Positions 38,113 through 59,544 are shown, numbered from the stretch's first letter. The stretch: 64,000 bases of DNA from Vulcanimicrobiota bacterium (GCA_963717425.1 OY970335.1:1777226-1841225); one strand, 5' to 3'. The notes: generated by a model from the letters alone, not told the origin. A program made the numbers and translations.

Positions 38113-41100
38113 CTAGGAGGACTGAATAGCGATCTGCTCAAGAGAGCCTAATCGATCGGGCACGCCAATCACGACGACATGCTTCAGTCTAACCCAGTCG
38201 AATAACGAAGTTCTTAGCACCCGACCGCCATTGAGCCAACCTGGGTCATTGTGAAGAAATGGATGTGCGAACACAATTCTGTGGTCCTTCGAAGAGGCTA
38301 TCGCATGGTGAGGACCGGAGCCGGTGAAGGTGTATGTGCCGTCGATCCGCGCCAGAGACGCCACCGCTGCTTCATAATCTACCTGTCGACCGGGTAACGA
38401 TTCTCCCTTCAAGAGGTGTACAAAGTCTAGGGCAAGACGCCAATCCAATAGTGGGTGCTTTTGGCGATTGGCGTAGCTACGTAGGCAGCGATAGCATGAA
38501 GAGTCACAACGATGCTGCGTGGCATCTTCGAACTTCTCGCCAAAAGTTTGGCCGAGCATGTCGGCCAACAGCGATTCAAAAAACCGTGGGTCGCCGATTT
38601 GCTCGGAAAAGCCGGCGCCATTCTCAAGTTCATCGGCAAGAAAGACGAACGCTCGTGGCCTTCTATTCTCATCGATCTCCTGCCAAAGGCCCTGCTCAAG
38701 CTCATGTGGATCGAGGTCCATTTTTGCGGTAGCTGCGGTCGCTATCAAAGCGGCCAATGACGTCCACGCGGCGCGGCGTGCGGGACTTGTCGGAGCGAGA
38801 TCGTAGGACCGCCGAAGGCGATTGCTCGCGCCTATCACGAGAACGTCGGTGCTGGTCTTGCACATCAGCGCTACATCGGAAAGGGGCTGTACGTACTCGG
38901 CCTTTTGCCATTCGAGGCGGCGAGTCTCGTCCTCATCTAGGATCCCGGGTTGACCGAGCGCGGACACGAATGTAAACGCGGCGCCGCCATTATCATTAAC
39001 AACATACACCATACCGTGACCCGTCCGAAGCTCCGCCTCGATGCATGGCTCTCCGGACGCGGGTACCGGCGCTCCGGTTAAACGTGCGTTGCCGCCTCTT
39101 GCGACGAACTCAGTCCCCCACTCATATGTTTGGGGTTCGTCCGAGTAATCGGTTCGGAATCCCAGTGGTTCAACCAGTGTGATCGGTTCGAAGGAGCCTT
39201 CGTTGCAGTATCTACACGGACGAAATGAGGTGTCATCATTTTCGGCTATCTTGCCACAGCTGACACAAACGTCTCTTACCTCTCGATTCCGGTATGGTTT
39301 GGTTATCGGTTGAAACGCTGGATCGTAAGCTACAAGCCCGATAGATCGATGGATCGTTTTGTCTCGAACGATCTCGGCTCCCGGCGCGAACTCGGCCACC
39401 GCCATTTTGAGCTGCCGTGATATCGCAGTTTCATTAGGTGGCCACACATCCTGATCTCTTCGGCTTGGGCCTCGCACATACAGCGGGCGCACTCGTGTGG
39501 GAAAGCCGAACAGGGGTAGGATACCAGCGTAGGCGAGCTCGCGACTCAGCTGAGCCCGACGTGTTATTGCCGGCTCTTCCGCCACCTCGATAGTATGCTC
39601 AACGAATTCATCGATCTCTGCGATGAGAGGTTGCTGCAGATAGGACAAGAGAGTCTGACTGTCGACACCTGTGCGATTTGACAGCCTTTCGGCTATTGCG
39701 GCAATGGTAGGAGATTGGGCGAGAAACTGACTAACGAAATCTTTATAGTAATGCCACTCTTCAAGCGTTGCGAACGACCCATGCGCCGTCGTGTCTGGCG
39801 AATCGTCGATGTCTTCGAGGTCGTCGAGAGCGACGGTCGGGCGTGGCATAATAGTCGATGCCTCATGAAACGCCCAGTACAGAGCCTCTTGTGCGGCAAC
39901 ACGCCTTGCGATACGTTGCGGGTCTCGTACGAGTTTTGGGGGCGGCGGGACATCACCAGTAATGCTCGACTGATTTGCAAAGTAGTGATCGTCGTGGCTA
40001 CGGCTACGGCAGACAGTCAAAGAGATCGCAATGGTTCTGCCTGCGCGCCCGGCTCTACCTACGCGCTGCTGGTAGTTCTGTCGCATCGGCGGCACGTTTG
40101 CCAGCATAACAGTCTGCAGAGTCCCGATGTCGATGCCCGCCTCCATCGTCGTGGTAACGCTCAGTACGTCAATGCCGTCGAAATCGAGATTTTCATCAGC
40201 GAGCGCCACGCCGCGGAAAAGCCTTTGGCGCTGCTGTGCGTCGCTCAATGGCGTCTGACCCGAAAGCTCCTCGGTGTGGAGGCGGGACATGTCACGTTCT
40301 TGAGCAACGAACGCATAATAGTCTTCTGACCGATGTTCGAACTGTTGCTCAGTCAAACGAAACCCACACGTTATGCAAATCTCCCCATAGGCACTGAGAT
40401 GACGTCGTGAGCAACGACCGCACTTCCACTGAGAACCACCGGGCGGCGCGAAGGCGAGGAGTCCCGCCTGGATGTACATTCCAGAAACGAGTATATCCGA
40501 TCGCTCAAGTATGTTATAGAGTTCGTACCCGACGGAATTCCAATCTGGCCGATCTAATGCTCTGGCTACGTGTCTCGCGTAGCGTTTTGCGTCGCCCCAA
40601 AGGCGATAATTTCCCGTACGCTCTGGCTTGTTCTTAGGGCGGCGCAACTCTTCAAAACGGCGCATCCCGATTAGTACCTGAAGCATGCCTTCTGCAAATG
40701 GCAGTATTTCTGGGCTCCCGCGTAGCGAAGTAGCAGGAACGATTCGAGCGAGACCGATATTTTGAAAGTCGCGACGCGCGCCGGAGCCAGCCAAGTCGGC
40801 TATCTCGTTACGGAGCCTCGTCCGAATAGCAGTCACGAGCTCAAGAGCACCTTCATCTAGGCGCGCTTCGTCTATGGTGTAGTGCTCAAAAGCATCCCTG
40901 CGCCACAGATGGTACCACGGCCGCTCTTGCGTGCCTACATCGTAGGTTTGGAGGGAACGATCGATTCCCGCCGGGTTCGTATGTGCCCGGGAAACCAGGG
41001 CACTCTCGACAGACTCCCGCAGCAATCTGAATGGCAGCCCGGTCGTAAAGCGACTGATCTTCTGTCTAATTTCCTCTGCTGCGGTCGCAGCTATAAGATC

Positions 41101-43677
41101 GGGAGTCTGCTCTAGCGCCAATACTTCTGCCGCCAGCGCGCTGTGCCTTGAGTAGAACTCGTCTGCGAGCCTCGCAGTGCTCAAATCAAGTCTTTCTCGT
41201 CGCGCACGACGTACGAACGCATCGAGGCGCTCGATGTCCATGCGTACGTCAAATAACCGACTTAGAATGGCCTGTCGGATCAAATCCTTCCAGTGGCCTG
41301 ACTCGAGATCTGCTCCCAGGGTCGCAGCAGCATTCCTGCTATCAGAGAACGCGATCAGCTGGCGGAGCTGCGCAAACCCATCACTCTGGTTCGCCTGTGA
41401 CACTCGTTCCAGCAAGGCATCGGCCAGTATCTGAGTAGCCTTGTGGAGACCAGTCGCTGAATCACGAATCACGTTGTTCCTAAAACGGCGCCGATCAGCG
41501 AGGCCGACGCGGTCTCCCGGAATTCTCAGTGCCTGGTTATAACCGTCGTCACCACAAGCCGGACAGTGAATGGGGTAATGCGGAAGCGATCTGCGGAACG
41601 CGGAGACTTGCTCAAAAACGCGTCCTCGGTCTCGGGGGGCGCGACGGTATCGCGGGCGGATGTCATAGATAAAGAATGGTGCATTTGTTGCACCGAGGGT
41701 TTGTGTGTCCAGTAGACCTGTCATTGGGTCAAAATTGGTTGGGAAGAAGCCAATCTCTAGTTGAACGTTAGCTCCGTCGTCGGTGCGATCATCGATTTCG
41801 AGATTTTCGCTCTCGGGCCGTTTCCCCATGGAAGGCCAAAGTACCGAATACGTCGCGATAGTGCGTCGCTGCTCTTTCTGATCGCCTGCAATTTGCCTCG
41901 AATCAATTGCAACGGCAAAGTGATGCTCGTCGTGCGGATCTTCCCCTGCGCGAATCGCCCAACCACTTATAAGTTGCTCGCCGCAGGTTTCACAGTAGAG
42001 CAGGTGCAGGATGCGGCCGCCACATTCGCACTCGAAGCGCGGTTCGGCGTAAAAGCGCCCAACATTCCGATCATCGTCGGTTTCGGACACACGGTCGCAC
42101 AGCACGTTCGTGCACACCCATCCTCCCGGGACCGTACGCACGAAGAGATGCGCCCTGGAGGGCAGCATCGGAACGTCGATCTGCAGGCGCTCGTCGCGCG
42201 TTCGCAATGCCTCTAGAAGCCCCGACAGAGCTATGCTACCATTCGGGACGTCGCCGAAGGCAGCGTCCTGCAATTGGGTCCATGACGCGGGACGCGGTTG
42301 ATCGGCACCGCCGGCGCGCGTCGACGCGTCCAAGGCGGCTTCAATTACTCCCGCGCTTTCCAAGGCTAGGTCCAATCGATCAGCACCCAGGGAGCGCGCC
42401 AGACGAAAGGCGTCCTTATCTCGGTCGAATTCGGCAAAGCTCGCTGCGGTATCCCGCAGGATGGTCGACTCTGCGGGGCTGTGGAGAGGAACAGAAGCGC
42501 AAGTCTCAAAGCTGCTTCCAGGCGCACCAAAGAACGTTTCGAGGAATGTCTCAGTGTCGCGTTCCGCTCCGAGGGATGCGCTGGTAGCGAGTATCCGGAG
42601 CTGTGGCGAAGTGGGGTCCAGGCCAAAGCGGCTCAGCACATTACGCAGTAGCATCGCGACTTCGCTCCCCATTGTGCCGCGATATGTGTGTAATTCGTCG
42701 ACGACCAATGTGAACACGTGGTCCGGATTCTGGACCAACCACTCGGCAGTCGCTGCGAACATGCCAGCTTCTCGCTGACGTAACATCATGATATTTAACA
42801 TCGCGTAGTTCGTGATCATGATATCCGGCGGGTGCGCGATCATGTCCCAACGACCACGCATCTCGGCTCCATCTAAGCGCTGGACGTAGGTGTTGGATAT
42901 TCCCGCATCGATCGTCGCCTGTTGTTGGCGAAGCCATTTGCGATACCGCCGCTCTGAAGCTCCGCGTTCCGCGACCACGTCTCCCGGAACGTCTCCTGGA
43001 ACCGGTGTCCGTCCAGTGTACCGCCCAAAATATATCCGATTATTATTTAGATGTGACCGGTACCACGCACGAGCATAGTCAGAATCCAATGCCTCTCGCA
43101 TTCGTCTAATCTGATCGTCTACCAAGGCATTCATCGGGTAGAGAATCAATGCCCGAACTGCAGCGTGACGCGCTTCGCCCATCCTCTGTGCCCGAAAGCG
43201 ACGATTACCCGTCCACCATTGCGTGTCGCTGTCATTTGGGGCCGCCCAGGGTCGCCGGATGGCCTCAGCCGCAATGTTTGCGACGATTGGGAATAGGAAC
43301 GCTTCGGTCTTTCCTGACCCGGTACCGGATCGCACTAGTGCGTTTCGCCTGTCTGAAGCCCCCATCCCGAAGAACGCCCGAAAGGCTTTGCCCTGATGCA
43401 GAAAAGGCCGACCGACGAGGTCCGAAAACAGTCCGGGTTGGATCAGGGTGGCGATATCTGAACCCGGCAATACTGAGTCCACTAGCTCTGCAATCGTTAA
43501 GTCGTCAGACTGATAGCGGGGGATGAGCTCTATCAGGGGCTCACCCGAAACGGCTCCCGGCCGTTCTAGCTCAACACGGCGCTCCCGGGCCACCGCTGAA
43601 CTCTTGAGTGCAAATGCCGTATCATAATAACGTAGAAAATCGCTCAAAAGGTCTTTCTGAAGCCGTAGGGGATTCAC
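38113..43677 (-). CDS. Giant DEAD/DEAH-box superfamily-2 helicase fused to a C-terminal DUF1998 (MrfA-type zinc-binding) domain; Druantia DruE-like.
   Basis: 1854 aa. Motif [13 protein letters not shown] (nt 43306-43326). Motif [13 protein letters not shown]. Motif [11 protein letters not shown]. Motifs [16 protein letters not shown]...[12 protein letters not shown]-terminal [25 protein letters not shown] (near nt 38470-38514). Several inserted CxxC zinc ribbons. The GTG start overlaps the upstream TAG (TAGTG). Confidence 0.9.
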
Positions 43678-44633
43678 TATGAACCTCCCGATTTGGCGAT
43701 CGGCTTTAGCGCCGGCAACTCATCGAGGGCGCTGAGCAGCTTCATCGCGATTATCCTAGCTATTCGTGCCGATACGCCGTCGTAGCAAGCGTAGCTCCTA
43801 TCGCCGAAAGCCTCACGATGGACCCCAAGAAAGCGTGCGCCACAGAAATGCAAAACGCGCTCAGCGAGAATTGGTATTGGCACACGAGCGTCGACGGCGA
43901 GTCGGCCGGCACCGTAACGTAGGAATCGCAATCCGGTCCGGCCGGCTGCGTACGCAAGAGCCAACTCCAGCTCAATGCGGCGTGCGCCTCGGTAGTCCAC
44001 ATAATAGTATTCGGCTGCAGAAAACTGTCTTCTTACGCGCAGCACCTGGAAATTAAGTTCAGAGTCGGCCCGGTCCGCCGCAGGGTCAAATGTTAATGCA
44101 ATCGGGTCCAAGAAATGGACATCGCCGTCACCTATAGCATCCGTCAAGCCGATCAATGGTCTTGAGTAAATGATCGAACCGAGCTGGGGCAGAGCGGAAA
44201 GGAGCGCCCAACCGGCGTCTAGCGAAGAGCGCTCGATTCGAAAGTATTCCGGCATTTGCTCAAGAGACGCTATGTCAGCGCCTTCCCCAGCCAGAATCTC
44301 CGATCGTGTGTACGAAATATTTCTTGTGACGATTGCGGCGTTGGCCGCGATTACAAAACCGTTCCGACCAAGTAAGACTGAGCGACTATCGTCGATTAGA
44401 CCGACGCCCAACAGCCGTCCTGGAACGACACGAATGATGGTCAAGGGCGGTACGCTCCACGAGCGGTTCCCGAGCCAGTCGAACTCTACGAGGCCCCTGG
44501 CGGCCAACGCGCGTGCCGCAAAATATTCATGGAGATTCAGGCCCGTAATGTCCTCAACTGCCCGTTTGAAAGTATGCCAGCTGCCGGCGCCCGTTCCTGC
44601 GAGAAACGACAGAAGCGCATCGCCATTCAGCAT
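43677..44633 (-). CDS. Hypothetical protein, middle gene of the helicase operon (318 aa).
   Basis: ATG 44633 overlaps the upstream TAA by 1 nt (TAATG), and its TAG overlaps the helicase GTG (TAGTG). No family or catalytic motif recognised. Confidence 0.65.
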
Positions 44634-46510
44634 TAGAGTAATAGCCCGCCGATAACAATCACCACTCGGCAATTCATGTATTCGTTGGTCTGGGCTGCGC
44701 CCGGGCTTGTAGTAGGGATAGCGATGCCACGAGCACGGCAGATGTCGAAGCCCTCGCAATCGTAGGGATCCATGCTCGATGTGACTGACCGAAGCGTCAG
44801 GCTAAAGGACTTACGGACACCGAGGACCTGCACAAAATGCATCCCCGGGGAAAGGTTAAATGGCAACCCATATTCTTTTCGACGAATTGCTGGTTCGGGG
44901 AGCATCCCGTCGTCGAGTGTCACACTTGCTTCCTCGATAGTAGGATGATCAAAAAAGATTTGCGGCGGCGTGGGCTGAAAGTATTCCGTGCCAACTCGCA
45001 GGCCCCGGCGAAACGTTACTCGAGCGCGATCTGGCGCCAAGAGATCCTCGAGTGCTGCGGGAATCGCTTCCCGCTCTGCGCGAGGTGCCCGTGCAGTGAC
45101 GATCGCAAGCTGCGGGGCCCCGTAACAATCACGGATCGCACTGTTCGCCCCCGAAATTGAGGCGAACGCTGCGCGGAGCGTTTCGGCAGTCTCTCGCGAA
45201 CAAAGCACGGCACAAAGGTCTCCAGCTCGTAGTTGGGTAGTCGCGATCCAACCTGTTCCATAGTTCGCGAATGTCACCACGTCATCCACAGATACCAGGC
45301 CTTTAGTGCCATTTGCTAATTCGTACATTATCGCGCCTTCATCCCATAGAAAGGACGTGGTGTCGGCGTCTTGCCAATCGTCCCCACCGATCCGACGTAC
45401 TTGAACGGACAGCTTCCACGGCAGCGCACCAATGTTCGCTCGGAGCACCAGGCGCTTTTCGAACGTTGTCCGATTACGATGTCGAGATGGCAGAGCCGCG
45501 ACGCGCCCGATGGCGTCTGCGATCGGGCTTATACGTTCCCCTTTTTGAGTCGAAATGTGCGATGACGCGCGCTCGGCTGGCCCACTAGTAATTCCCAAAG
45601 GATCGTGAGAAGCACGAAGCCCTCTTTCGGCGAGCTTTCGGTGCACAGAAGGCATGACCGTATCCTGAGGGTCGCAGCGATCCAGAAACCACCGCACGTA
45701 CTCCGTTTCGACGAGGTCGACGAACCCCTCGAAGAGGTGGCCCTCAGCGTGGACGAGTTCCAGCGTGTGTTCGAGAGCGTGAGAAAAAGCGTAGTCTCCG
45801 GGGTGCTGTAGCTCGTCGAGCATCATGTCGCGAATATCGCTCCGTGTCAGCTCGCGTCGACCCGCGCAGCGATGATCGAAGTAAAAGGCGAGCTGACGCC
45901 TCGAAGAAGCGCTGAGCAATACCTGAACTCGCGCTCGCCAAACATACTTTCCACCAAATGCACTATTGACGAGTAGGAGGCGCCCACGTCGACCCCCGCA
46001 ATTCACCTCAAGATAGTCTCCAAGCTCACGATAAAAGGACGTTGCATCAGAGAAGTGTGGGACATACGGAGTATCTCCCAGACCGAGCAAGTGTCCGAGC
46101 TGACGATGGAAGTATGCGCGCCGTCCTCCTTCGATCGCGTCGCCACTTTGTGAAGCCGCCAATGAAAAAACCGCTAATAATCCGACGTAATATGGAGGAT
46201 CGCGGTCCGCGACAGAGCGGCGTAACCAAGGGTGCCACCAGATGAATGGGTCGGCGTCGTGATGACGGATCAGCGCGCATATACTTTCCTTGAAGTTTTC
46301 AGGCGAGCGACCCATTTCCGTCGCGACCGAACGTAACTCACCGTCATCGAAGGACAGGATCCGGACAGCACCTGTGTCGGTTATAGGGAAGTAGCGCTGG
46401 AATATGCGATCATTCCACTCAAAGTAATCGGCGGCGTGGTCTGAATCGACGTCCGTTGCGGAACTCGGTTGGAGCGGCATCCCGTCGCGATTGGTCGGAC
46501 CAAGCGCCAT
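44633..46510 (-). CDS. Hypothetical protein, first gene of the helicase operon (625 aa).
   Basis: Long ORF with ordinary amino-acid composition, coupled to the downstream gene. No family or motif recognised. Confidence 0.7.
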   Translation of the reverse strand: MALGPTNRDGMPLQPSSATDVDSDHAADYFEWNDRIFQRYFPITDTGAVRILSFDDGELRSVATEMGRSPENFKESICALIRHHDADPFIWWHPWLRRSVADRDPPYYVGLLAVFSLAASQSGDAIEGGRRAYFHRQLGHLLGLGDTPYVPHFSDATSFYRELGDYLEVNCGGRRGRLLLVNSAFGGKYVWRARVQVLLSASSRRQLAFYFDHRCAGRRELTRSDIRDMMLDELQHPGDYAFSHALEHTLELVHAEGHLFEGFVDLVETEYVRWFLDRCDPQDTVMPSVHRKLAERGLRASHDPLGITSGPAERASSHISTQKGERISPIADAIGRVAALPSRHRNRTTFEKRLVLRANIGALPWKLSVQVRRIGGDDWQDADTTSFLWDEGAIMYELANGTKGLVSVDDVVTFANYGTGWIATTQLRAGDLCAVLCSRETAETLRAAFASISGANSAIRDCYGAPQLAIVTARAPRAEREAIPAALEDLLAPDRARVTFRRGLRVGTEYFQPTPPQIFFDHPTIEEASVTLDDGMLPEPAIRRKEYGLPFNLSPGMHFVQVLGVRKSFSLTLRSVTSSMDPYDCEGFDICRARGIAIPTTSPGAAQTNEYMNCRVVIVIGGLLL

Positions 46511-46969: not shown

Positions 46970-49045
46970 ATGACTAGGTTCGAACTGAAGACGACTCTCT
47001 CGGTGCTTGAGGACCTCGGAATCAACAACTACACCAACGCCGCCGCCGTTCTCTCAGAGATCGTGGCGAATGCTTGGGACGCTGACGCTTCCAACGTCTT
47101 CGTTACGGTCAGCGGCAGCGGCGCAAGCCGCGTGATGACGATCGAAGATGACGGCGTCGGCATGACTGCTCTCGAGATCAATGAACGCTATTTGACCGTT
47201 GGCTACAAACGGCGCGATGCGCCGGGCGGAGGGCGAACTCCGTTGGGACGCGCAGTGATGGGGCGTAAAGGGATCGGCAAACTAGCCGTATTTTCGATCG
47301 CTTCGAAGGTCGAAGTGCACACCGTTAAGGGAAGGGCGCGGAGTGCATTCTCGATGGACCTAGCAGATCTTCGAGCGGACGCCAAAGCACAACGGCCGTA
47401 TTATCCCAAGGATCTCGCCTGTGTTAAGAACTTGACACGCGGTACGAGAATCGTTCTGCGCGGTATCAATGCATCTCTGACCCTCACCGACCGCTTCCTG
47501 CGACGGCATCTTTCCCGTCGCTTCACCATCATTGATGGCGCTCACGGCTTCTCTATTACAGTCAACGGGAAGCCTTTGACGCTTGCGGATCGGGAGTATT
47601 ATCCGAAGCTACAGTACATCTGGCATTATCACATGCCCGTCGTGCCGACTCTCGCTACAGCGGCGGAACAGGAAGAGGCACGCAACTTCCAAGTCTCGGT
47701 CCCCAATAAGAGCGGCAACGCGACTAAGTATGCGATATCCGGCTGGATCGCTACGGTAAAACAGCGTTCCCAACTGGCATCGTCGGATGACGACAACCTC
47801 AATCGCTTGTCTTTGGTCGTGCGCGGTAAACTCGCACACGAAAACTTTCTCGAGGAGTTCAGTGAAGCAGGGGTGTATGCAACTTATCTCATCGGAGAGA
47901 TGAACGCGGATTTCCTCGATATTGACGACAAGCCGGACATTGCAACGCCGAGCCGCCAGCGAATCGTCGAGAGCGATCCCCGTTACGTGGCTCTCAAGAA
48001 GTTTGTCCAGGCCGAACTGAAACACATCGAGTCGTCTTGGACCGCAATTCGCAACCAGACTGGACTTGAGTCCGCCCTGGAGATCCCAGCGATTTTTCAA
48101 TGGTACCAAGGCTTACAGCCCCGCGAGCAGATGATCGCGACAAAGCTATTGGGTCGGGTCAACACCTTACCGATTGAAGCCGACGAGCGACGAACGCTAT
48201 TTAAGCAGGCCGTTCTCTCGTTCGAGGTCTATAGGGTCAAGAGCAATCTCGACGCCCTGGAATCGATGTCATCTGACCAACTAGCTGCAGTCGGAGAGAT
48301 CTTCAAGAGTATCGATGACATCGAGGCAGCTCTTTACCTGCAGCTGGTTCGACAGAGGATCGGGATAATCGACGCCTTCGATCGCATGGTAGGTGAGAAT
48401 CAGAAGGAAGTCTTCCTGCAAAGCCACGTTTTTAACCACCTCTGGCTATTAGACACGGCTTGGGAACACGCCACTGAGAACGCTGTCATGGAAAAGAGCG
48501 TTCTCAAGATGCTCAAGGACGCAACAGGGAAGCCCACCAGTTCACTTTCAAGAGAGGTCGCTAGATCTCGCGTCGATATCCGATACAGGCTCGTCAGCGG
48601 TCGGCACGTGATCATCGAGCTCAAGCGCGCCAACAGGGTAATGAACACCGCCGACCTGCTGAAGCAAGTACAAAAATATGCGGCCGGAATGCGGAAGCTA
48701 TTGGCGGATAGCGGTGGCGCTTACGAACCATTCGAAATCATCGTACTGGTGGGGAAGCGGTTGAGCGATTGGAGCAACGATCCTGGGGCGGAGGAAGTCT
48801 CGCGGAAAACCTTTGCTCCGCATCAGACCCGAATTATGATGTACGACGAGGTGCTACGAAACGCGAAGAGTATGTATGGGGAGTTCGTCGCCAGAGAGAA
48901 GGAAGCATCAAAAATTGGGGCTATTCTCGAAAGCATCGACGAATCGGATATTCCCAAATCCGGTATTCTGGTACCAGGAGCCAATAAGAAGAGCCTTCCT
49001 CAGACTTCGGCGATGAAGCCGATCGTGCGCAAGAAACGACGATGA
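46970..49045 (+). CDS. GHKL/MORC-like ATPase (HATPase_c_3) fused to a C-terminal PD-(D/E)xK nuclease-like module; candidate ATP-dependent restriction component.
   Basis: Bergerat-fold motifs SEIVANAWDA, TIEDDGVGM and GRKGIGKLAVFS. C-terminal VDIRYRL...HVIIELKR (D at 48576-48578, E-L-K at 48617-48625). The stop overlaps the vsr start (ATGA at 49042-49045). Confidence 0.8.
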   Translation: MTRFELKTTLSVLEDLGINNYTNAAAVLSEIVANAWDADASNVFVTVSGSGASRVMTIEDDGVGMTALEINERYLTVGYKRRDAPGGGRTPLGRAVMGRKGIGKLAVFSIASKVEVHTVKGRARSAFSMDLADLRADAKAQRPYYPKDLACVKNLTRGTRIVLRGINASLTLTDRFLRRHLSRRFTIIDGAHGFSITVNGKPLTLADREYYPKLQYIWHYHMPVVPTLATAAEQEEARNFQVSVPNKSGNATKYAISGWIATVKQRSQLASSDDDNLNRLSLVVRGKLAHENFLEEFSEAGVYATYLIGEMNADFLDIDDKPDIATPSRQRIVESDPRYVALKKFVQAELKHIESSWTAIRNQTGLESALEIPAIFQWYQGLQPREQMIATKLLGRVNTLPIEADERRTLFKQAVLSFEVYRVKSNLDALESMSSDQLAAVGEIFKSIDDIEAALYLQLVRQRIGIIDAFDRMVGENQKEVFLQSHVFNHLWLLDTAWEHATENAVMEKSVLKMLKDATGKPTSSLSREVARSRVDIRYRLVSGRHVIIELKRANRVMNTADLLKQVQKYAAGMRKLLADSGGAYEPFEIIVLVGKRLSDWSNDPGAEEVSRKTFAPHQTRIMMYDEVLRNAKSMYGEFVAREKEASKIGAILESIDESDIPKSGILVPGANKKSLPQTSAMKPIVRKKRR

Positions 49046-49431
49046 GGCGTTCCTCGTCCGAACGCATGCGTCGAGTTGGCCGACGCGATACTGACTGCGA
49101 GTTGCGCCTTCGGTCTCGTTTGCATGCGATTGGATTTCGGTATCGAGTTGACTATTGCGTCGAAGGTTTGCGCACGAAACCTGATATCGCATTCGTCCGG
49201 GCAAGGGTCGCTATCTTCATCGACGGTTGCTACTGGCACGGATGTCCGGAGCATGGGACAATCTCTAAGACAAACGTCGGATTTTGGCGAGCGAAGATCG
49301 AGGGCAATCGAGAGCGGGATCGGCGCTTGACGAAGGACCTGACTCGGGCAGGCTGGCGAGTCGTGCGGTTGTGGTCACACGAATCTCTTGGCACCATGCT
49401 GGAACGAATTCGCGACGCATTGACGCGTTAG
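49042..49431 (+). CDS. vsr: Very-short-patch repair endonuclease.
   Basis: RMRRVGRRDTDCELRLRSRLHAIGFRYRV...KPDIAF...VAIFIDGCYWHGCPEHG...FWRAKIEGNRERDRR...GWRVVRLWSHE is collinear with E. coli Vsr as I remember it. Confidence 0.9.
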   Translation: MRRSSSERMRRVGRRDTDCELRLRSRLHAIGFRYRVDYCVEGLRTKPDIAFVRARVAIFIDGCYWHGCPEHGTISKTNVGFWRAKIEGNRERDRRLTKDLTRAGWRVVRLWSHESLGTMLERIRDALTR

Positions 49432-50576
49432 AATGCCATCACCTCCTCGTGGTGAAGCAAGTCTTCTAAGAACTGCGGGGGATAATGAAGATTGCTCCTC
49501 TCAAGACGCCCACGGAAGCCACGCGTCGCGCGCTCCGACAGCGGTGGCGGCTCTTGCGTCAGGAATCGCATGATCGGCGTCATTTCTAGGAGTACTGGAA
49601 AGGCACTGACCTCTATCGAGTAACGCTCTCCGCTGCGCCCCCAGGCTGCGAGCGGCCACGGCCCCGATTTCGGGAACCTCCTGCCGCGCAAATCGCGTTT
49701 GGTTTCGGGCACCCGACCAAGCCTCTTACCGATCCAGGAGGCAACTGGGACGCTGACGGCATTCCCGATCATCTTCCAGCGTTTGCGCTCAAACCTGGGA
49801 ATATCGCTCCCGATATCCGTCCAACCGATCGGGAAGCCTTGCAACGCCTCGGCATCCGCGATCTGCGGCATGACAATGGACCGTCGACGCCTCACCCAGA
49901 TCGCCGGGGGTGATGGAATGTGAATCCCGGAGCCGCTCTTCAGTGGGGGTACGGAATCATCAGCCCAACCTAGCCCGGCATTACCCTCGGTCCAATAGAA
50001 GCCGTGCGCCTGAACGTCATCGTGTCTAGGTGCATGTCCAACATCCTGGTCGAGTAGAATGCTTGGCGCAGAGTCGTCAAGCGATGCAACAAGAAGCCAA
50101 CGTTTCCGACGCTGCGGCAATCCGAATGCGGAAGTATCGACGATGCGATACGACCACGTGTATCTCATTGCCTCAAGCAAACGTGTGACATACGCAAGCG
50201 CTTTCCCGCGCTCAAGGTGAACGATGTTTTTGACGTTTTCCAAAACGATAAACGTGGGAAGGCGCTTCCTCGGGGTCTTAGCGATGAGCGCGAACATCCG
50301 CCGCAGGAGATCACGGCTGCCGTGCAAGCCGCTCGTCGGACCCACCTGACTGAAAGTCGAACAAGGAAAACCCGCGAGAATTGCATCTGACCGAGGTAGC
50401 TGTGTAATATCGAAAATATCCCCCGCAATGTCGCTCGTGAACCGATGCCGAAGGACCGATCGGCATGCATCATCGATCTCGTTAAGAAAAACCGCGTGAT
50501 GCCCGGCATTCTGAAATCCGAGTTCCAAGCCGCCGATTCCGGAAAAGAGACCTACGACTTGCAATCTATCCTCCAT
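49428..50576 (-). CDS. dcm: DNA (cytosine-5)-methyltransferase.
   Basis: Start at ATG 50576 (MEDRLQVVGLFSGIGGLELGF, motif I). GFPCSTFS (motif IV), VLENVKN (VI), QRRKRWLLVA (VIII), GNAVSVPV (X). The 131 codons upstream in the ORF are Arg/Ser/Pro-rich and probably not translated. The stop overlaps the vsr stop convergently (TTAG). Confidence 0.93.
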   Translation of the reverse strand: MEDRLQVVGLFSGIGGLELGFQNAGHHAVFLNEIDDACRSVLRHRFTSDIAGDIFDITQLPRSDAILAGFPCSTFSQVGPTSGLHGSRDLLRRMFALIAKTPRKRLPTFIVLENVKNIVHLERGKALAYVTRLLEAMRYTWSYRIVDTSAFGLPQRRKRWLLVASLDDSAPSILLDQDVGHAPRHDDVQAHGFYWTEGNAGLGWADDSVPPLKSGSGIHIPSPPAIWVRRRRSIVMPQIADAEALQGFPIGWTDIGSDIPRFERKRWKMIGNAVSVPVASWIGKRLGRVPETKRDLRGRRFPKSGPWPLAAWGRSGERYSIEVSAFPVLLEMTPIMRFLTQEPPPLSERATRGFRGRLERSNLHYPPQFLEDLLHHEEVMAF

Positions 50577-50636
50577 TGAGCATCTGATCGAGGCGGTTCC
50601 ATCCACTGCGATCGCTGGAAAGGCGATAAGTACTCC

Positions 50637-50680
50637 ATTAGAAGCGTTTTCCCTCGAGATTAGAAGCGTTTTCCCTCGAG
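50637..50680. repeat. Perfect 22-bp tandem duplication ATTAGAAGCGTTTTCCCTCGAG x2 in the dcm/UDG-like divergent intergenic region.
   Basis: Read directly: 50637-50658 and 50659-50680 are identical. The repeat lies about 60 nt upstream of the dcm start. Confidence 0.9.
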
Positions 50681-50968
50681 CGGCCTTGGCTGGGCCGCGT
50701 CGGGCTTCGCACGGGACTGAAATACGCCGAAGAAAGACAGCCCGGATCAGCCACGAATAGGGGCGCCGCGATGCTTCGTGCGAGTGACTGGGACTCTGTT
50801 GATCCGCGAAGCCTGCCGTCGTTCGGGACGCGCGCTCTCCAGGCGCCTTGCCCGTAGGCGTCCGCTCGCGGCCTCCCTGCGGGCCAGTCTCATACGATCT
50901 CGTGCTGGGGCTTCGGGGTACGGTCGGCGAAATGCGGGCCGCTTGTGAACACTGCAAACGGGAGCCCA

Positions 50969-51706
50969 ATGACGGCAGTCCGAGAAGTCTTCGATTCGAT
51001 AGCCTACTGCAAGAACGTTGCGCTGTGCCATCACGGGGGCGAATCGCACCCCTGCGCCACGATCGTTCGGTCGCAGCACGTTTCAGACGCCAATTTTCAA
51101 CTGCCAGAGCCGTGGCGCGGCCGGATCGACAAGGCGCGCATCCTATTCATAGGCTCCAACCCTTCGATCGGCGACGATCGGTACGCGCTTCAGTCTTCCC
51201 CTGAAACGCAGGTCTGGGAGTCACAGCATCTCGCATTCGGCGGCGGAAGCCGGCCATACGTCATAGACGGCATCAGGACGACTACGGCCACTGGGTCGCC
51301 CGACCACGTCGTACGCTATTGGTCGTCGATTCGGGCCAGGGCGCGCGAGTTGATCCCATGCGCGGTCCCGGGCGAGGACTACGCGATTTCTGAAGTCGTG
51401 CACTGCAAGTCCAAGGGCGAAGAGGGAGTCGCCGAAGCAGCCCAGACCTGCTATGCCATGCACATGTCGGCCGTGTTTTCGGTCGCGGCCGCGAAGGTCA
51501 TAATCGTGCTTGGCAAGTTCGCCAAGGAACAGCTGCTGGGTGCCGTGCCCGCTCCTTCGATTCCATCGCAGCTGGAGCTGGGAGGTTGGAAGCGGACCGT
51601 GCTCTTCTTGCCGCATCCCAACGCCAGAGGCGTACGGAAAGCCCTTGCAGCGCACTATGCCGGTGCGGACTTAGAGGCGGTCAAAGAGCTAATCGCGGCC
51701 CCTTGA
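50969..51706 (+). CDS. Uracil-DNA glycosylase superfamily protein (MUG/TDG- or family-4-like).
   Basis: ATG 50969 is preceded by GGGAG. ILFIGSNPSIGDD resembles the GINPG/GMNPG catalytic motif. FLPHPNARG resembles the HPS/NPSG C-terminal motif. An N-terminal Cys cluster is present (CKNVALCHHGGESHPC). Confidence 0.55.
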   Translation: MTAVREVFDSIAYCKNVALCHHGGESHPCATIVRSQHVSDANFQLPEPWRGRIDKARILFIGSNPSIGDDRYALQSSPETQVWESQHLAFGGGSRPYVIDGIRTTTATGSPDHVVRYWSSIRARARELIPCAVPGEDYAISEVVHCKSKGEEGVAEAAQTCYAMHMSAVFSVAAAKVIIVLGKFAKEQLLGAVPAPSIPSQLELGGWKRTVLFLPHPNARGVRKALAAHYAGADLEAVKELIAAP

Positions 51707-51720
51707 GAACACCCAGGGAG

Positions 51721-52473
51721 ATGGACGACGAGACATTCCTCGCATTCGTTCGCAATAGCGCCGCCAAATGCGATCTCGAGACGCTTGAAAAAGCCGTTAA
51801 GGCGCTAAGCGATAGCATCGCCAGTCGGCGCTGGGGGAGGCCGCCAGGTCTCGAAGTTGGGTCTCACGTTGCGGCCGTCGATTTCGATGGATGCTTTGGA
51901 TGGTACGGCACAGTCATTCGGTTGACGGGCCAGGGTTGCATCATCGAGCCGCCGGCTGCAAAATATACCCAGCGAATCTCGTTCAAGAGGTTCATAGTGC
52001 GCATCGTGGACGAGTTTGAATGGAATCGCGCATGTATGGCCGCAGAAGAGCGAGCGCACGACTTCGCCGAAAAAAAGGTTCGAGAAGATGCCGAATTGGA
52101 GGCGGACCGGGAGGACGCAATTAAAGATCGCGCCCCTGCAGCTCAGCGCCCCAAAAATATGCTGGCGATGAATGGTGCGGTAAGTGTGTACCGAGGAGCG
52201 TTCGTTCACGCTTATCGTCCCGACTGCGATGACCACGAGTACGGCGTGGTCGTCTACATGACGCCGAAGGCCCTGGACCTGAGTAGCCCGGAATCCGCGT
52301 GGATCCATCGAGTCGTCGCGGTGAAACATGAAATCGACATCCTGAGCGAGGGAGAGTGGCAAGTGGTGGATGCCGAGTTACGACGGAGGCGAGCGGAATA
52401 CGAAGCAGCGGAAAAGGCCGGGAAAACATCCGATCTGATCGACTACAGTAATGTCAGGATCCCCCTGCGTTGA
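51721..52473 (+). CDS. Hypothetical protein with two similar small beta-rich segments, each followed by a charged helix.
   Basis: ATG 51721 is preceded by CAGGGAG. The internal repeat is seen by eye (...GWYGTVIRL...IVRIVDEFEWN vs ...YGVVVYM...AVKHEIDILSEGEWQ). No family recognised. Confidence 0.5.
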   Translation: MDDETFLAFVRNSAAKCDLETLEKAVKALSDSIASRRWGRPPGLEVGSHVAAVDFDGCFGWYGTVIRLTGQGCIIEPPAAKYTQRISFKRFIVRIVDEFEWNRACMAAEERAHDFAEKKVREDAELEADREDAIKDRAPAAQRPKNMLAMNGAVSVYRGAFVHAYRPDCDDHEYGVVVYMTPKALDLSSPESAWIHRVVAVKHEIDILSEGEWQVVDAELRRRRAEYEAAEKAGKTSDLIDYSNVRIPLR

Positions 52474-52609: not shown

Positions 52610-53857
52610 TTGCCGTTCCTGGACAACCCGAGCCGCCACGGTCTTGATCGAAATGCAGTCACACTACCTGTGATACCCCAAGGCCAGGACCCACGCGGAA
52701 ACGCTCACACTCCAGCATCGTCCGAGCCCGCGTACCTCTTAGAAACTCTTCGTATCATTGAAGCAGCCACCAATCACGATGCGGAGAAGCTGTCGATCTT
52801 CGTCGCGGCCCTCGTAAATAAGCTCCGCGAAAACGGCTTCGCTCACGCTGGGAAGCTTATCGAAAGAGCGTTTAACCGGTCGCGCGAGAGGCAGCTCTCC
52901 CCACAGTCATTGGGGCGCACAGTCGAAGGAGGGCTGCGGATTCCAGTTGACCCGGAGACTCACGTACCGCTAGCGGACGTCGAAACGCTTTCGGTAGACG
53001 ACTTGGGCTACGAAGCCGATCCGTTGACGTCGGCTAATACGTCTTCGTTCCTGTCCTTCGCGCGTAATCGGGGCAAGCTTCTCGCGAGTGGAATCTTCGT
53101 GCCGACGAATCTTCTGCTGCACGGGCCGCCTGGCTCCGGCAAAACGATTACTGCGAGATACGTCGCCGCCGCTCTCGGCCTGCCTATTATAACCGCCAGG
53201 ATGGATGCCGTTGTCTCCAGCTACTTGGGAAACACTGCAAAGAACATCCGCTACATTTTTGATGCAGCATCGTCGCAAAATGTCGTGCTGTTCCTGGATG
53301 AGCTTGATGCGATCGCGAAGGCCCGAGATGATGAGCACGAGCTTGGCGAACTAAAGCGCGTGGTAATAGCGCTGCTCCAAAACATCGACTCCGTGAACGG
53401 GAAGCTGATCCTGATTGCGGCGACTAATCACGAGCATCTTCTTGATCCGGCGATTTGGCGGAGGTTCCCGCACCGCGTCGGATTTCAGTCTTCCACGCTT
53501 GACTTTAGAAGGGCGCTGTTCGCGAGGTTTTCGACCGGGTTGCCGCCGGTCTGGTATGATGCCCTCGCACATGCCTCGCGTGGCCTAAGCGCCGGGGATA
53601 TACGCGAGATAACACAACGCGAGCAGATCAGCGCCATCATTGAAGATCGACTTATCCTTCCGGCCGCATTGCTGCGGAGCACGCTTGGCGTCGCTTCAAA
53701 GGGACCGGGCGGTTCGTACATGCCGATCGCGGATGTCGCCCGACGCGCAGCTTCCCGTGATAGTAAGTATTTTACTATTACTAGGCTGGCGAATCTACTT
53801 GGGGTTAGCCGCAGCAGGATCACAAGTTACCTTCGTAGGGCACGGCGTGCCAGATAA
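52610..53857 (+). CDS. AAA+ ATPase (classic AAA clade), IetA-like.
   Basis: LLLHGPPGSGKTITARYVA (Walker A), VVLFLDELDAI (Walker B), LIAATNHEHLLDPAIWRRF (sensor/Arg finger region). An S8 protease gene lies immediately downstream. The TTG start is uncertain. Confidence 0.85.
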   Translation: MPFLDNPSRHGLDRNAVTLPVIPQGQDPRGNAHTPASSEPAYLLETLRIIEAATNHDAEKLSIFVAALVNKLRENGFAHAGKLIERAFNRSRERQLSPQSLGRTVEGGLRIPVDPETHVPLADVETLSVDDLGYEADPLTSANTSSFLSFARNRGKLLASGIFVPTNLLLHGPPGSGKTITARYVAAALGLPIITARMDAVVSSYLGNTAKNIRYIFDAASSQNVVLFLDELDAIAKARDDEHELGELKRVVIALLQNIDSVNGKLILIAATNHEHLLDPAIWRRFPHRVGFQSSTLDFRRALFARFSTGLPPVWYDALAHASRGLSAGDIREITQREQISAIIEDRLILPAALLRSTLGVASKGPGGSYMPIADVARRAASRDSKYFTITRLANLLGVSRSRITSYLRRARRAR

Positions 53858-53903
53858 CTTTCAGCTCCCCATCCAAAGGGTGCTCAACCGCGACGGAGAC
53901 CGT

Positions 53904-56108
53904 ATGGCACGGCACGCTGGCGGAGGAGCAGATACTGTTTTCGAGGATGACGGCGAAGGTGGAGGACAAGGGGGTGTGCTTGCGGTCCTACCTCAGATCG
54001 AGCGAGAGGTAAACGCGCTTTCAGCAAGGTTCCCCTCAGTCCCGGCCGTTCTTCGCGTTCGCCTTAAGGACAATGCGCTCGCAAAGACACACCGGCCGAC
54101 CTCCTTATTCGACGAAGAAGCGCCCATAATAGGCGGCGAGGGGCCCGGAGAGTTGCTTGTTGCGGCCATGCCGCACTCACTCGCGGTTGTACGGCGCCGC
54201 GTCTCCAACCCCACCTCGCAGCGGATGCGCGCTAATATCTCAACAATTAGAGAAATGAACCTTGTCGAGCCGCGATCGAAGGTGGCTGAACTCCCGCATG
54301 AACCGAATGCTGATGGGCGGTATCAGCTTAAGGTAAAGCTATTCGATTATCACGATCAAGGCGTAAACGATCAATCACTGCGGAGGTTCATGACGTATCT
54401 CCATGAGCTTAACGTTGACGATCCAACAGTCCACCAGTATGCGCCAGATCTAAGAGTATTCGGGCTTGAGGTCGCCGATTTAGGGTTGGCTGAGCGGATC
54501 GCAGAGTTTCCGACCGTGAGGGCGGCGACGGCCTTTCCTCAGTTTGGCCACGATATTGACTTTGCGGCAGTGTCACTGGGGGCGCTCCAACCGGAGCGTC
54601 TTCCTCCGCCGGCTGCCGGCGAGCAGTATCCAGTGGTTGGGATGATTGACGGCGGAACCGACCCCGCGAACGCGCCGCTTCGCCCGTGGATTACCAATCG
54701 GTATGAGCCCTCCCCAGGTGCTGACAGGAATTTCGCTCATGGCACCTTCGTGGCTGGACTGATCGCAAGCCCAAAATCCCTTAACGGGCTTCTTGAGGCA
54801 TTCCCACCCACAAAGTGCCGGATCGTCGACGTGATCGCGATGCCGACCACCGGCCTTAGGGAACCGGAGCTCCTTGCAACGATTGATGCGGCTCTCGTAC
54901 AATTTCCAGACGTCCGAATTTGGAACATTTCCCTTGCGCGCAACGTCCCCGCCCATAAGGATGAGTTCAGCGATGTAGCGCGGGCGCTCGACGCTCGGCA
55001 GGATCGTCACAATGCCCTTTTTGTTATCGCCGCTGGAAACTACCGGACGCCGCCGCTCCGATCGTGGCCACCTCAGCCCTTAGCAGATCGAGATCGTGTA
55101 GCAGCACCCGGTGACTCAGCTCGCGGCCTCACGGTCGGGTCCGTTGCACACCTCGATAACGGTATATCGGCCGTGAGGACCGGTGAACCATCACCATTCT
55201 CTCGCCGTGGACCCGGCCCGTCGTTTATCCCGAAACCCGAACTTCATCACCACGGTGGGAACTGTTCGGCAAACGGCGACTTTCGCCAAATTGGCGTTCA
55301 ATCTGTCAACGAGCAAGGCTTGCTTGCCGAAGACGTGGGGACGAGCTTCGCAACGCCGATCATCTCATCTATTGTCGCGAACGTCGATCGCGCGCTCGGT
55401 GGCGGAGCTTCGAGGAACCTCCTCAAAGCGCTAATGGTGCATAGTGCGCTACTAAATAGCGGTCCCGACGTATCACCAAGTGACTTAAACTACTACGGCT
55501 TCGGAAAACCAACTGACGTTGTTGACGCGCTCGCGTGCGATCCGTGGTCATTTACGTTCCTGTTTGAGCCTAAGCTAGTCGCGGGCTATTACTACAATAT
55601 TTGGCCGTTCCCGCTTCCGGCGTGCTTACATCGAAACAATCGGCTATATGGCGAGGTTATAATGACATTGGTTTACGATCCGCCATTAGACAAAAGCTAT
55701 GGCTTTGAATATTGCCGGAGCAACGTCGAGGTTTCATTTGGAACGTACCTAGAGGACGCGGAAGGGAAGCGCCACCAGGCCGGCAAGGTGCCTGCGGACC
55801 CGGCGAGTCCAGACCTGGCTTTCGAAAAGTCTCGAATCGAGCACGGTTTCAAATGGTCGCCGACTAAGGCGTATAGGAAGCGCTTTCGTGGGACTCGTGG
55901 CGACGTTTGGAGACTCATGGTAGAAATCTTACACAGAAGTAACTTCGCGCCGACTGACCCGCAGCGCGCTGCCATTATATTGACGCTACGCGATCCGGAC
56001 AAGAATCGACCAGTTTATACTGACACGATGGACGCGATTCGATTAGTGGGCCGCCCGATCAGCGCACTCCGCGTACGAGACCAAGCGCGCTATCGGCGCC
56101 GAGCCTAG
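53904..56108 (+). CDS. S8 (subtilisin-like) serine peptidase, IetS-like.
   Basis: ATG 53904 is preceded by GGAGAC. Catalytic contexts are VVGMIDGGTD (Asp), HGTFVAGLIA (His), VIAAGNY (oxyanion Asn) and GTSFATPIISS (Ser). The N-terminal region of about 230 aa is of unknown fold. Confidence 0.85.
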   Translation: MARHAGGGADTVFEDDGEGGGQGGVLAVLPQIEREVNALSARFPSVPAVLRVRLKDNALAKTHRPTSLFDEEAPIIGGEGPGELLVAAMPHSLAVVRRRVSNPTSQRMRANISTIREMNLVEPRSKVAELPHEPNADGRYQLKVKLFDYHDQGVNDQSLRRFMTYLHELNVDDPTVHQYAPDLRVFGLEVADLGLAERIAEFPTVRAATAFPQFGHDIDFAAVSLGALQPERLPPPAAGEQYPVVGMIDGGTDPANAPLRPWITNRYEPSPGADRNFAHGTFVAGLIASPKSLNGLLEAFPPTKCRIVDVIAMPTTGLREPELLATIDAALVQFPDVRIWNISLARNVPAHKDEFSDVARALDARQDRHNALFVIAAGNYRTPPLRSWPPQPLADRDRVAAPGDSARGLTVGSVAHLDNGISAVRTGEPSPFSRRGPGPSFIPKPELHHHGGNCSANGDFRQIGVQSVNEQGLLAEDVGTSFATPIISSIVANVDRALGGGASRNLLKALMVHSALLNSGPDVSPSDLNYYGFGKPTDVVDALACDPWSFTFLFEPKLVAGYYYNIWPFPLPACLHRNNRLYGEVIMTLVYDPPLDKSYGFEYCRSNVEVSFGTYLEDAEGKRHQAGKVPADPASPDLAFEKSRIEHGFKWSPTKAYRKRFRGTRGDVWRLMVEILHRSNFAPTDPQRAAIILTLRDPDKNRPVYTDTMDAIRLVGRPISALRVRDQARYRRRA

Positions 56109-56381: not shown

Positions 56382-57308
56382 GTGACCGTATCGAGGCGCG
56401 TAAAGGAAGCAGATGCTGAGGCTTTCGCGGAGGTTTTGTCTAAGACAGCGTTGCCAGGAGGTACGGCAAGATTTGGCCATTTCGCGCTGCGAGGAAAGAG
56501 TGGCGTTAGAGACCGGATCAACTGGTCGAACCGTACGAACGGCAACGACCTCATCCTCGGCAAGCAGGAGTACACGTTCCCTTGCGGCGCGGCAGACGTT
56601 CAACTCTCGCTGCAACTCTATTTCAACGTGCGCCGCCACTATCGCCTTTTCGCATATACGAGGGCTGGCGATGTAGAAGGCATGACGTTCTCGGTCAACC
56701 TTACGACGAAAAGAGAATCGCGAAGCGTCATATTCCTGGAGCAGCCGATCAGTTTCAAGGAACGCTATCCGGATGCCCGAGATGGTGGCATCGAGCGCCG
56801 CCGGCAAAAGCAGATTCTGCTCTGCGATGTGCTTAGGCGCATCGGCATGGACGTCGACGATGATGCGAGGCTGGTTCTCGGCGTCTTCGATCCGCAGGGC
56901 CGAATGCTGCTCGACGCCACACCCGAGAGCTTTCTGAATAACTTCGTCGCGGCAGCGCTGTTGAAGGGCCACTTTCAGGGCAATAAGGGATATGAGTTGG
57001 ACGTCATTCCTTCTATGCGGGCCGCATACGATCTCTTCGCGCCAGCGAAAATGAATCCAAAATGGAAATCGCTGAGGGGGCGTCGCCCTGCTGGGCGCCC
57101 TCCAATTCCGTTAGCGGTACGTTACAAGGTCCTCGCGAGGGATCGGAGCGTATGCCGAAGGTGCGGACGGGGAGTGGCGGGAGGTCTCACTCTGCACATT
57201 GACCACAAGACCCCGGTTTCGCTCGGCGGCGACAGTGGCCTGAAGAACCTCTGGACGCTTTGCAGCGAGTGCAACCTCGGCAAGGGCAACCGCATCATCG
57301 ACCGCTAA
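56382..57308 (+). CDS. HNH endonuclease with an N-terminal domain of about 230 aa of unknown function.
   Basis: GTG 56382 is preceded by AGGAGG at 6-nt spacing. The C-terminus is CRRCGR...LHIDHKTPVSLGGDSGLKNLWTLCSECNLGKGNR (HNH with a CxxC...CxxC zinc site). Confidence 0.85.
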   Translation: MTVSRRVKEADAEAFAEVLSKTALPGGTARFGHFALRGKSGVRDRINWSNRTNGNDLILGKQEYTFPCGAADVQLSLQLYFNVRRHYRLFAYTRAGDVEGMTFSVNLTTKRESRSVIFLEQPISFKERYPDARDGGIERRRQKQILLCDVLRRIGMDVDDDARLVLGVFDPQGRMLLDATPESFLNNFVAAALLKGHFQGNKGYELDVIPSMRAAYDLFAPAKMNPKWKSLRGRRPAGRPPIPLAVRYKVLARDRSVCRRCGRGVAGGLTLHIDHKTPVSLGGDSGLKNLWTLCSECNLGKGNRIIDR

Positions 57309-58651: not shown

Positions 58652-59536
58652 TTATTGAGCAAAACGGTGCGAATCCCTCTCTAACTTGGACCACAACTTG
58701 TTATAATTATAATTGTAATGCTTCCTATTCTGAAATGCAAAATTCTCAAGCTTCATTTCATTTACGATAGCAGTATTGCCATCGAGAACGTTTGTGGAGT
58801 CGGTAAAATACAACTCCTTCAGGTTATGGTCAGTCCGTAGGGGATTTAACGACGCAATATTTCCCACGTTGTCGAGGTGTAAGCACTCAAGCTTCGGTAA
58901 GTTGGTAATGACGTCGACGCTTTTCAACTTTCTACAGGTTTGAATCCTAAGGTCTCGCAGCGATTTGAGTGAACTAATGGCAGTAAAATCGTCTAGCTTA
59001 CGGAGGTGGGAGAGTGTGAGGTTTTTTATGCCATTGCATCGCTCGAGCCCAGACAAAGTGCGAAGCGGCCCTCCGATGAGCTCAAGCTCGCGCAAATAGG
59101 GGGCCGTACCGATGACTTGTAGATTCTGATCGCCCCATGAGAAAACTCGCAGCGTGGTTAGCAGGGGTGCTCGCCAAAGATTAACGAGCTTGGGTCCCCA
59201 TGGGACACTCAGCTCCTCGATCAGCGGCCACGACGCAGGATCAGCATCGAAAAAACTATCAGATTGAACCGTCAAGACCCGTAGGTTATGGAGGTTCGCA
59301 ATCCCATGAATATCAAATGCGGTCCGGTTTATTATGTGGAGTCGCTCTAGATTTCGAAAGCCTTGCAGTAGGCTGATGTCACCGGTCCTACGTCGCCACA
59401 GAGTCCAGATCTCTGTTACACAAGATCCGGCGGGTCCGATCTCTCGTAATAGTTCTGGCGTTAAAGGATCTGCTAGCAGCAGCGATATGCTATCATGCGC
59501 CGATTCAAGCCGAAAGCCAGACGTCGGAAGTTGCAC
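58652..59536 (-). CDS. Leucine-rich-repeat protein; candidate cognate immunity protein of the RHS toxin.
   Basis: 294 aa with repeated LxxLxLxxCxxL units (LRELELIGGPLRTLSGLERCNGIKNLTLSHLRKLDDF...LRDLRIQTCRKLKSV...LECLHLDN). The GTG start is 8 nt after the RHS stop. The gene is markedly A+T-richer than its surroundings. Confidence 0.8.
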   Translation of the reverse strand: MQLPTSGFRLESAHDSISLLLADPLTPELLREIGPAGSCVTEIWTLWRRRTGDISLLQGFRNLERLHIINRTAFDIHGIANLHNLRVLTVQSDSFFDADPASWPLIEELSVPWGPKLVNLWRAPLLTTLRVFSWGDQNLQVIGTAPYLRELELIGGPLRTLSGLERCNGIKNLTLSHLRKLDDFTAISSLKSLRDLRIQTCRKLKSVDVITNLPKLECLHLDNVGNIASLNPLRTDHNLKELYFTDSTNVLDGNTAIVNEMKLENFAFQNRKHYNYNYNKLWSKLERDSHRFAQ

Positions 59537-59544
59537 GTAGTTTT

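Follow-up and report, generated by a model that had tools for sequence, protein, structure and literature searches.

The closest described relatives of the locus analysed here are the restriction enzymes R.HgiDII and R.BbrUII, which belong to a family of more than 5,500 sequence clusters, together with the paraMORC3 proteins and the GHKL-type Shedu proteins. R.HgiDII, listed as a restriction endonuclease, has a GHKL N-terminus and a C-terminus that was then unassigned, a domain to which the Type II enzyme classification of 2008 gave no fold (PMC2441816). M.HgiDII is described as an experimentally characterised C5-cytosine (m5C) methylase of GTCGAC in a passage of PMC5867850 that cites Düsterhöft & Kröger 1991; for M.BbrUII the papers conflict between m5C and N6-adenine (m6A) methylation (PMC5867850 against PMC5829577). 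Iyer, Abhiman & Aravind (2008) described the paraMORC3 proteins, in which a GHKL+S5 module is followed by a restriction-endonuclease-fold domain with an E-D-ExK motif, in restriction-modification (R-M) contexts with Dcm and Vsr (PMC2292703). In VcSduA, the GHKL-type (type I-D) Shedu protein of Vibrio cholerae, the substitutions E27A in the ATPase and K557A in the nuclease each abolish phage defence (PMC12137116). We analysed a 64,000-nucleotide stretch of a Candidatus Cybelea genome (Vulcanimicrobiota/Eremiobacterota; GCA_963717425.1, OY970335.1:1777226-1841225), hereafter the window, in which three genes at positions 46970-50576 encode an ATPase-nuclease of 691 amino acids (aa), a Vsr endonuclease and an m5C methylase. 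We put at roughly 85% the probability that these genes form a Type II R-M module of the HgiDII/BbrUII family, with Vsr as an accessory, lying in a defence island of this genome.

The 691-aa protein (46970-49045, plus strand) matched the NCBIfam model NF050001, “BbrUII/HgiDII family restriction enzyme”, with 699.9 bits over profile positions 1-659 of 659; NF050001 is an equivalog model with a curated cutoff of 550 bits, and the protein belongs over its full length to the family so named. The REBASE-derived REase_II model of PADLOC (PDLC03419) matched it as well (1e-89). An earlier, sequence-only reading of this DNA had presented GHKL ATPases of R-M systems as predicted and little studied. The gene set is indeed an ordinary one that has received little study, but the prediction is not unexplored: the family is named in REBASE and NCBIfam, paraMORC3 was described in 2008 (PMC2292703) and GHKL-type Shedu proteins in 2023-2025. 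On NF050001, canonical members scored 780-813 bits and the subclade of the window 687-707 bits, about 100 lower. The window nuclease is ~43-45% identical to canonical members, a divergence typical of the family because the median pairwise identity across the family is only 43%. Homologues on RefSeq plasmids (H1-H15) are labelled merely “ATP-binding protein”, as is GenBank MGA8475013.1, a near-identical copy from a metagenome-assembled genome (MAG) that falls in the same 90%-identity cluster; the NF050001 name has not yet been propagated to these records, and the present assignment supplies the correct name for genes so labelled in the source MAG and on the RefSeq plasmids.

The second gene (49042-49431, plus strand) encodes a 129-aa Vsr very-short-patch T:G mismatch endonuclease, which matched TIGR00632 with 121.2 bits (cutoff 97.85) and Pfam Vsr (5e-17), with the motifs P47-D48 and D61GCYWH present. 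The third (49428-50576, minus strand) is, judged by its sequence, an intact C5-cytosine methylase: it matched TIGR00675 with 142 bits (cutoff 100.65) and, over its full length, the REBASE-type MTase_II model PDLC03324 of PADLOC (1e-107, 358 bits), and it carries motifs I (FSGIGG, residue 11), IV (PCSTFS, 71), VI (ENV, 113), VIII (QRR, 155) and X (GNAV, 271). The REBASE-derived REase_II, Vsr and MTase_II models of PADLOC thus each match their own gene of the module. The methylase open reading frame (ORF) spans 49428-50969 on the minus strand, and the methylase domain begins at ATG 50576, giving 382 aa; the gene is also called from this ATG on an identical public contig, and the NCBI record starts it at TTG 50564 (378 aa), with GGAGG 5 nt upstream. 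The names of the methylase homologues were all generic, none being tied to a characterised enzyme. Direct reading of the sequence bore out the two overlaps noted earlier from the sequence alone: the stop codon of the nuclease gene and the start codon of vsr share the ATGA at 49042-49045, and the vsr TAG and the dcm TAA overlap on opposite strands in the TTAG at 49428-49431, the methylase gene lying 383 bp downstream of the nuclease gene and convergent with it.

The nuclease protein comprises an N-terminal ATPase, a middle domain, a linker and a C-terminal nuclease, all encoded on the plus strand. The GHKL (Bergerat) ATP-binding domain (residues 1-165, 46970-47464) was matched by Pfam HATPase_c_3 (9e-19, 68 bits) and contains motifs I (E30xxxN34xxD37A), II (D60xG62xG64), III (G98xxG101xG103) and IV (G158-T159), whose residues are invariant in an alignment of 38 homologues. 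An S5-like/transducer middle domain (~residues 170-330, 47477-47959) was recognised by a Foldseek search with the full model; within it, the triplet R285-G-K287 is a candidate gamma-phosphate sensor, R285 being invariant in the same alignment and K287 conserved to 90% or more. It is followed by an all-helical linker (~residues 337-471, 47978-48382; helices H337-369 through H452-471 in the AlphaFold (AF2) secondary structure), possibly a clamp or DNA-recognition element. The C-terminal domain (~residues 476-640, 48395-48889) is, on the evidence of profile matches in homologues, invariant residues and the model, probably a PD-(D/E)XK nuclease of the SduA_C type found in Shedu. Its candidate catalytic residues D536 (48575-48577), E550 (48617-48619) and K552 (48623-48625) form the motif D536...E550-L-K552 and, like the conserved E480, E508 and Q566, are invariant in an alignment of 51 sequences. 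The Bergerat motifs and the D...ELK motif near the C-terminus had both been pointed out in the sequence-only reading; they are present, their positions have been checked and they are invariant in homologues.

The full-length AF2 model, built on 38 homologues, had a mean pLDDT (predicted local distance difference test) of 79. With this model, Foldseek against PDB returned the N-terminal and middle domains of Hsp90/TRAP1 and the MORC2 ATPase (E 1e-11 to 1e-13, 430-470 columns), and the match falls on the N-terminal ~330 residues, that is, on the GHKL and S5-like transducer domains; the full protein sequence gave only marginal Hsp90/HtpG GHKL matches in PDB. The resemblance to MORC is at the level of the fold, with MORC2, and the sequence similarity to MORC4 is insignificant (E 0.96). 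The earlier label “MORC-like” is a loose term for what is better called a paraMORC-type GHKL+S5 module. Modelled alone, the C-terminal domain reached a pLDDT of 85 and a pTM (predicted template modelling score) of 0.80, with the alpha-beta-beta-beta-alpha-beta order of the PD-(D/E)XK core, in which D536 opens one strand and E550-x-K552 closes the next; in the full-length model this alpha/beta domain is followed by a long helix and then by a basic tail that is disordered. Profiles gave stronger evidence on this fold than the structure searches: Pfam SduA_C matched 17 of the 38 homologues at E<=1, with whole-profile matches above the gathering score of 27 for P0060 (31.2 bits) and P0090 (28.6 bits), and PDDEXK_4 matched 12 of the 38. 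The Foldseek lists for the C-terminal model were enriched for restriction-endonuclease-like folds (RPB5 N-terminal domain, arenavirus cap-snatching endonuclease, Can2, Nt.BspD6I, XisH, Hef, LmuA, Bse634I and Mrr-like proteins), weak matches that are consistent with the assignment but not decisive. A PADLOC scan of C-terminal fragments gave weak LmuA and SduA matches only, and the SduA models of PADLOC did not detect the window's own sequence. Because the window sequence itself goes undetected, the grounds for the SduA_C-type assignment are the full-length homology (43-45% identity) and the invariance of the E-D-ExK residues; they support placing the C-terminal D...ExK in a Shedu-type PD-(D/E)XK domain.

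We then assessed the linkage of the three genes using one genome per species (570 relatives), of which the best 80 loci, from many bacterial phyla and archaea, were examined; neighbours were called by iterated profile searches on all ORFs, with a methylase counted within 1.5 kb and Vsr within 2.5 kb. An m5C methylase was adjacent in 69 of the 80 loci, lying upstream or overlapping on the same strand in 66 of those, typically with a 4-bp overlap, and Vsr was nearby in 22. Among the 11 loci lacking a methylase, four are truncated where their contig ends and four come from a single Cenarchaeum MAG. The nearest relatives of the nuclease (80%, 53% and 49% identical) keep the order of nuclease gene, optional vsr and convergent methylase, R>(V)<M, in genomic surroundings that are unrelated and contain no Druantia; nuclease and methylase identities fall in step (80/72%, 53/58%), and the top homologues of both proteins occur on the same contigs. 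Since the closest relatives keep the layout, the identities co-vary and the top homologues of both proteins share contigs, we conclude that the module is inherited as a unit, and the linkage in 69 of 80 loci, the recurrence of R>V<M without Druantia and the parallel divergence together argue that the methylase is the partner of the nuclease. The proposal made from the sequence alone, that the GHKL nuclease is the restriction partner of this Dcm and Vsr its repair accessory, is thus supported by NF050001, by the nuclease domain and by the linkage to dcm and vsr in homologous loci. Its description of the R-V-M arrangement as unusual needs qualifying: the arrangement does depart from the family norm, in which the methylase gene precedes the nuclease gene with a 4-bp overlap (M>R), but it is conserved within this subclade. 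In the Cenarchaeum MAG, that of an uncultured archaeal sponge symbiont (OY282369), we observed at least four full-length homologues of the GHKL nuclease (L036, L037, L041 and L073), none with an m5C methylase within 1.5 kb.

Compared with R.HgiDII and R.BbrUII, which REBASE classes as Type II with the site GTCGAC, the locus shares full-length homology above the cutoff, the GHKL N-terminus, an adjacent C5-cytosine methylase and a Vsr, which is frequent in the family; it differs in its R>V<M order with a convergent methylase and in the other lineage of that methylase, the nuclease having the identity to canonical members given above. VcSduA can be likened to the window protein by architecture (GHKL ATPase, middle domain and C-terminal DUF4263/SduA_C nuclease), with E27 and K557 equivalent to E30 and K552, but it is a single gene without a methylase, whereas the window protein is tied to a methylase and Vsr, belongs to a group consistently linked to a methylase and is not stand-alone. 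Because its nuclease is tied to a methylase, the window system would protect itself by modification. The paraMORC3 paper is a computational prediction in which HgiDII is not named, and we assigned the window protein to that class by matching architecture and motifs; the architecture also fits the GHKL class of Shedu proteins (bioRxiv 10.1101/2023.08.10.552793). The canonical Shedu protein SduA of Bacillus cereus probably has the same type of nuclease domain, SduA_C being recognised in homologues of the window protein, and differs in having another N-terminal sensor, a tetramer/octamer assembly and no methylase linkage. In the Dcm-Vsr system of E. coli, an m5C methylase and Vsr likewise occur with a GHKL+S5 ATPase, MutL; there, unlike in the window, MutL is unlinked and has no domain of the PD-(D/E)XK type, and the system lacks a restriction component. 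Computational work has already described the architecture of the window protein, and genetic tests of it exist for a relative that stands alone; what is new here is minor: the subclade-specific R>V<M layout, the replaced methylase lineage and the occurrence in an uncultured Vulcanimicrobiota genome. The assignment does tie a classical family of Type II restriction enzymes to the GHKL-Shedu defence proteins represented by VcSduA and paraMORC3.

In the mechanism that we propose, the m5C methylase would mark the host copies of a short recognition site, possibly GTCGAC as for HgiDII, and the 691-aa enzyme would cut unmethylated incoming DNA with its Shedu-type PD-(D/E)XK domain (D536, E550, K552), so that the module would restrict foreign DNA in the source organism. 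By analogy with MutL, MORC and Hsp90, the GHKL+S5 module would most likely dimerise on binding ATP, and this ATP-driven dimer may close on DNA as a clamp and so license the two nuclease domains or bring them into position. An ATP requirement of the 691-aa enzyme is suggested by its invariant ATP-binding and catalytic Glu residues and by the behaviour of VcSduA. Vsr, translationally coupled to the nuclease gene, would nick T:G mismatches arising from 5-methylcytosine deamination at methylated sites, and such repair would offset the mutagenic cost of the methylase. Why a six-base-cutter should carry a MutL/Hsp90-like ATPase is a question for which this large family would offer a tractable model.

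Several observations weigh against the assignment to this family of Type II systems or against parts of it. In the window protein itself, the C-terminus gave no match to Pfam SduA_C at E<=1; the C-terminal model, searched with Foldseek in PDB and BFVD, had no hit at E<=1e-3 (best E 2.7e-3); and a profile of the C-terminal domain found no match among PDB sequences even at E<=10. We know of no biochemical assay that addressed ATP dependence for the HgiDII family, and HgiDII itself was used as an ordinary Mg-dependent Type II enzyme, so that its cleavage may not strictly need ATP. As to the partner and the site, canonical partner methylases align to the window methylase over N-terminal residues 1-165 only, at 25-32% identity, and the window shows no depletion of GTCGAC (47 sites where 32 are expected), a count that is nonetheless uninformative on specificity.

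BbrUII is presumably an isoschizomer of SalI, and for the window system GTCGAC is plausible as the default expectation, unproven as it is; this specificity is uncertain because the window methylase and the canonical partner belong to different lineages. That the locus is an R-M module of this family with another recognition sequence, its methylase lineage having been exchanged beside a nuclease ~43-45% identical to canonical members, is a serious competitor to which we give a little less than an even chance. The window-type methylase (PDLC03324 type) has a ~110-aa C-terminal extension, shares only the catalytic N-terminal half with canonical partners and has full-length relatives only in the subclade and in one further locus, L010; the lower NF050001 scores of the subclade and the lack of GTCGAC depletion point the same way. 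L010, however, pairs a nuclease of the canonical clade (55-60% identical to others) with a window-type methylase 46% identical to that of the window, so that both methylase types serve very similar nucleases, and the divergence of the window nuclease is, as noted, no greater than usual in the family. A different function for the GHKL protein was also considered, namely that of a MutL-like accessory of very-short-patch repair that stimulates or directs Vsr at T:G mismatches, which would make the locus a Dcm-Vsr-“MutL” repair cassette. The overlap of the vsr start with the stop of the GHKL gene fits such a role, as do the resemblance of the GHKL+S5 module to the MutL/MORC class and the interaction of E. 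coli MutL with Vsr, which it stimulates, as cited in a passage of PMC2292703. We nevertheless regard it as very improbable, since Vsr is present in only 22 of the 80 loci against 69 for the methylase, the GHKL protein carries its own invariant PD-(D/E)XK active site, and the two enzymes that gave the family its name are listed as restriction endonucleases (PMC2441816). A combination of these ideas with the Type II module, in which an ATP-gated clamp licenses the nuclease, the same GHKL module stimulates Vsr and the exchanged methylase confers a site other than GTCGAC, is unlikely, though less so than a pure repair cassette; if it were true, one ATPase would serve both restriction and deamination repair.

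The remaining alternative arises from the neighbouring Druantia genes, because the methylase lies upstream of DruF on the same strand. These genes, all on the minus strand and identified with PADLOC, encode a 1854-aa DruE (38113-43677; DruE4, 1388 bits), a 360-aa DruL4-like protein (43677-44759) and a 625-aa DruF-like protein (44633-46510). The methylase might then be a DruM-like part of this Druantia, and the GHKL nuclease with Vsr an unrelated insertion or a stand-alone Shedu-like effector. Its strand and its position upstream of DruF-DruL-DruE recall DruM in type II Druantia, whose operon reads DruM-DruF-DruG-DruE, GHKL-Shedu proteins such as VcSduA can work alone (PMC12137116), and in Lysobacter capsici CP076103 (L087, 5001-11203) a 48%-identical methylase (PDLC03324, 434 bits) is convergent to a DruE2-type helicase (1321 bits). 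The best match of the window methylase to a DruM model, on the other hand, reached 108 bits over the N-terminal catalytic half only, compared with the 358 bits of the full-length MTase_II match, and two opposite-strand genes separate the methylase from the Druantia genes. By its gene content the Druantia at 38113-46510 is of type IV, in which DruL is present and DruM absent by definition (PMC8565338), and it needs no methylase. The R-V-M genes moreover recur as a unit without Druantia, nuclease and methylase being paired in 69 of the 80 loci with co-varying identities. On the half-length DruM match, the type IV assignment through DruL and the occurrence of R-V-M without Druantia, we rejected the methylase as DruM and hold this alternative to be about as improbable as the repair cassette. 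The L. capsici locus stands as a second case of the window methylase lineage beside Druantia.

The Type II R-M module and the Druantia lie together in a stretch of lower GC content, which drops from ~0.64 to ~0.56 over 36000-64000 in the window, downstream of a tRNA-SeC gene (28023-28116) and of a tyrosine recombinase (integrase) gene that follows it (34722-35696, minus strand). The tRNA gene, the recombinase and the fall in GC content are what an integrated island that carries the defence genes could show. On the identical contig, an ArdC-N fragment was found just below DruE. On the other side of the module, a gene for a protein of the uracil-DNA glycosylase (UDG) superfamily (50945-51706, plus strand; PF03167, 28 bits; no PADLOC match) diverges from dcm. 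This UDG-like neighbour was rejected as a part of the module, being absent from all other module-bearing loci examined; the gene that follows it (51586-52473, plus strand), for a protein of 250-295 aa, had no PADLOC match and was likewise not found in the other module-bearing loci examined. Beyond these, PADLOC identified an IetA/IetS defence pair (52610-56108, plus strand), consisting of an AAA ATPase (IetA, 335 bits) and an S8 peptidase (IetS, 768 bits); an HNH-domain protein is encoded after it (56382-57308), and a 1459-aa RHS-repeat protein and then a leucine-rich repeat (LRR) protein (58652-63924, minus strand) occupy the far end of the island.

A scan for promoters and terminators gave sites no more numerous than in shuffled sequence. 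In the intergenic region from which dcm and the UDG-like gene diverge, we observed a perfect tandem duplication of 22 bp, ATTAGAAGCGTTTTCCCTCGAG. Its two copies occupy window positions 50637-50680, which lie 61-104 bp upstream of where the methylase starts, and may form an operator or be no more than a recent duplication.

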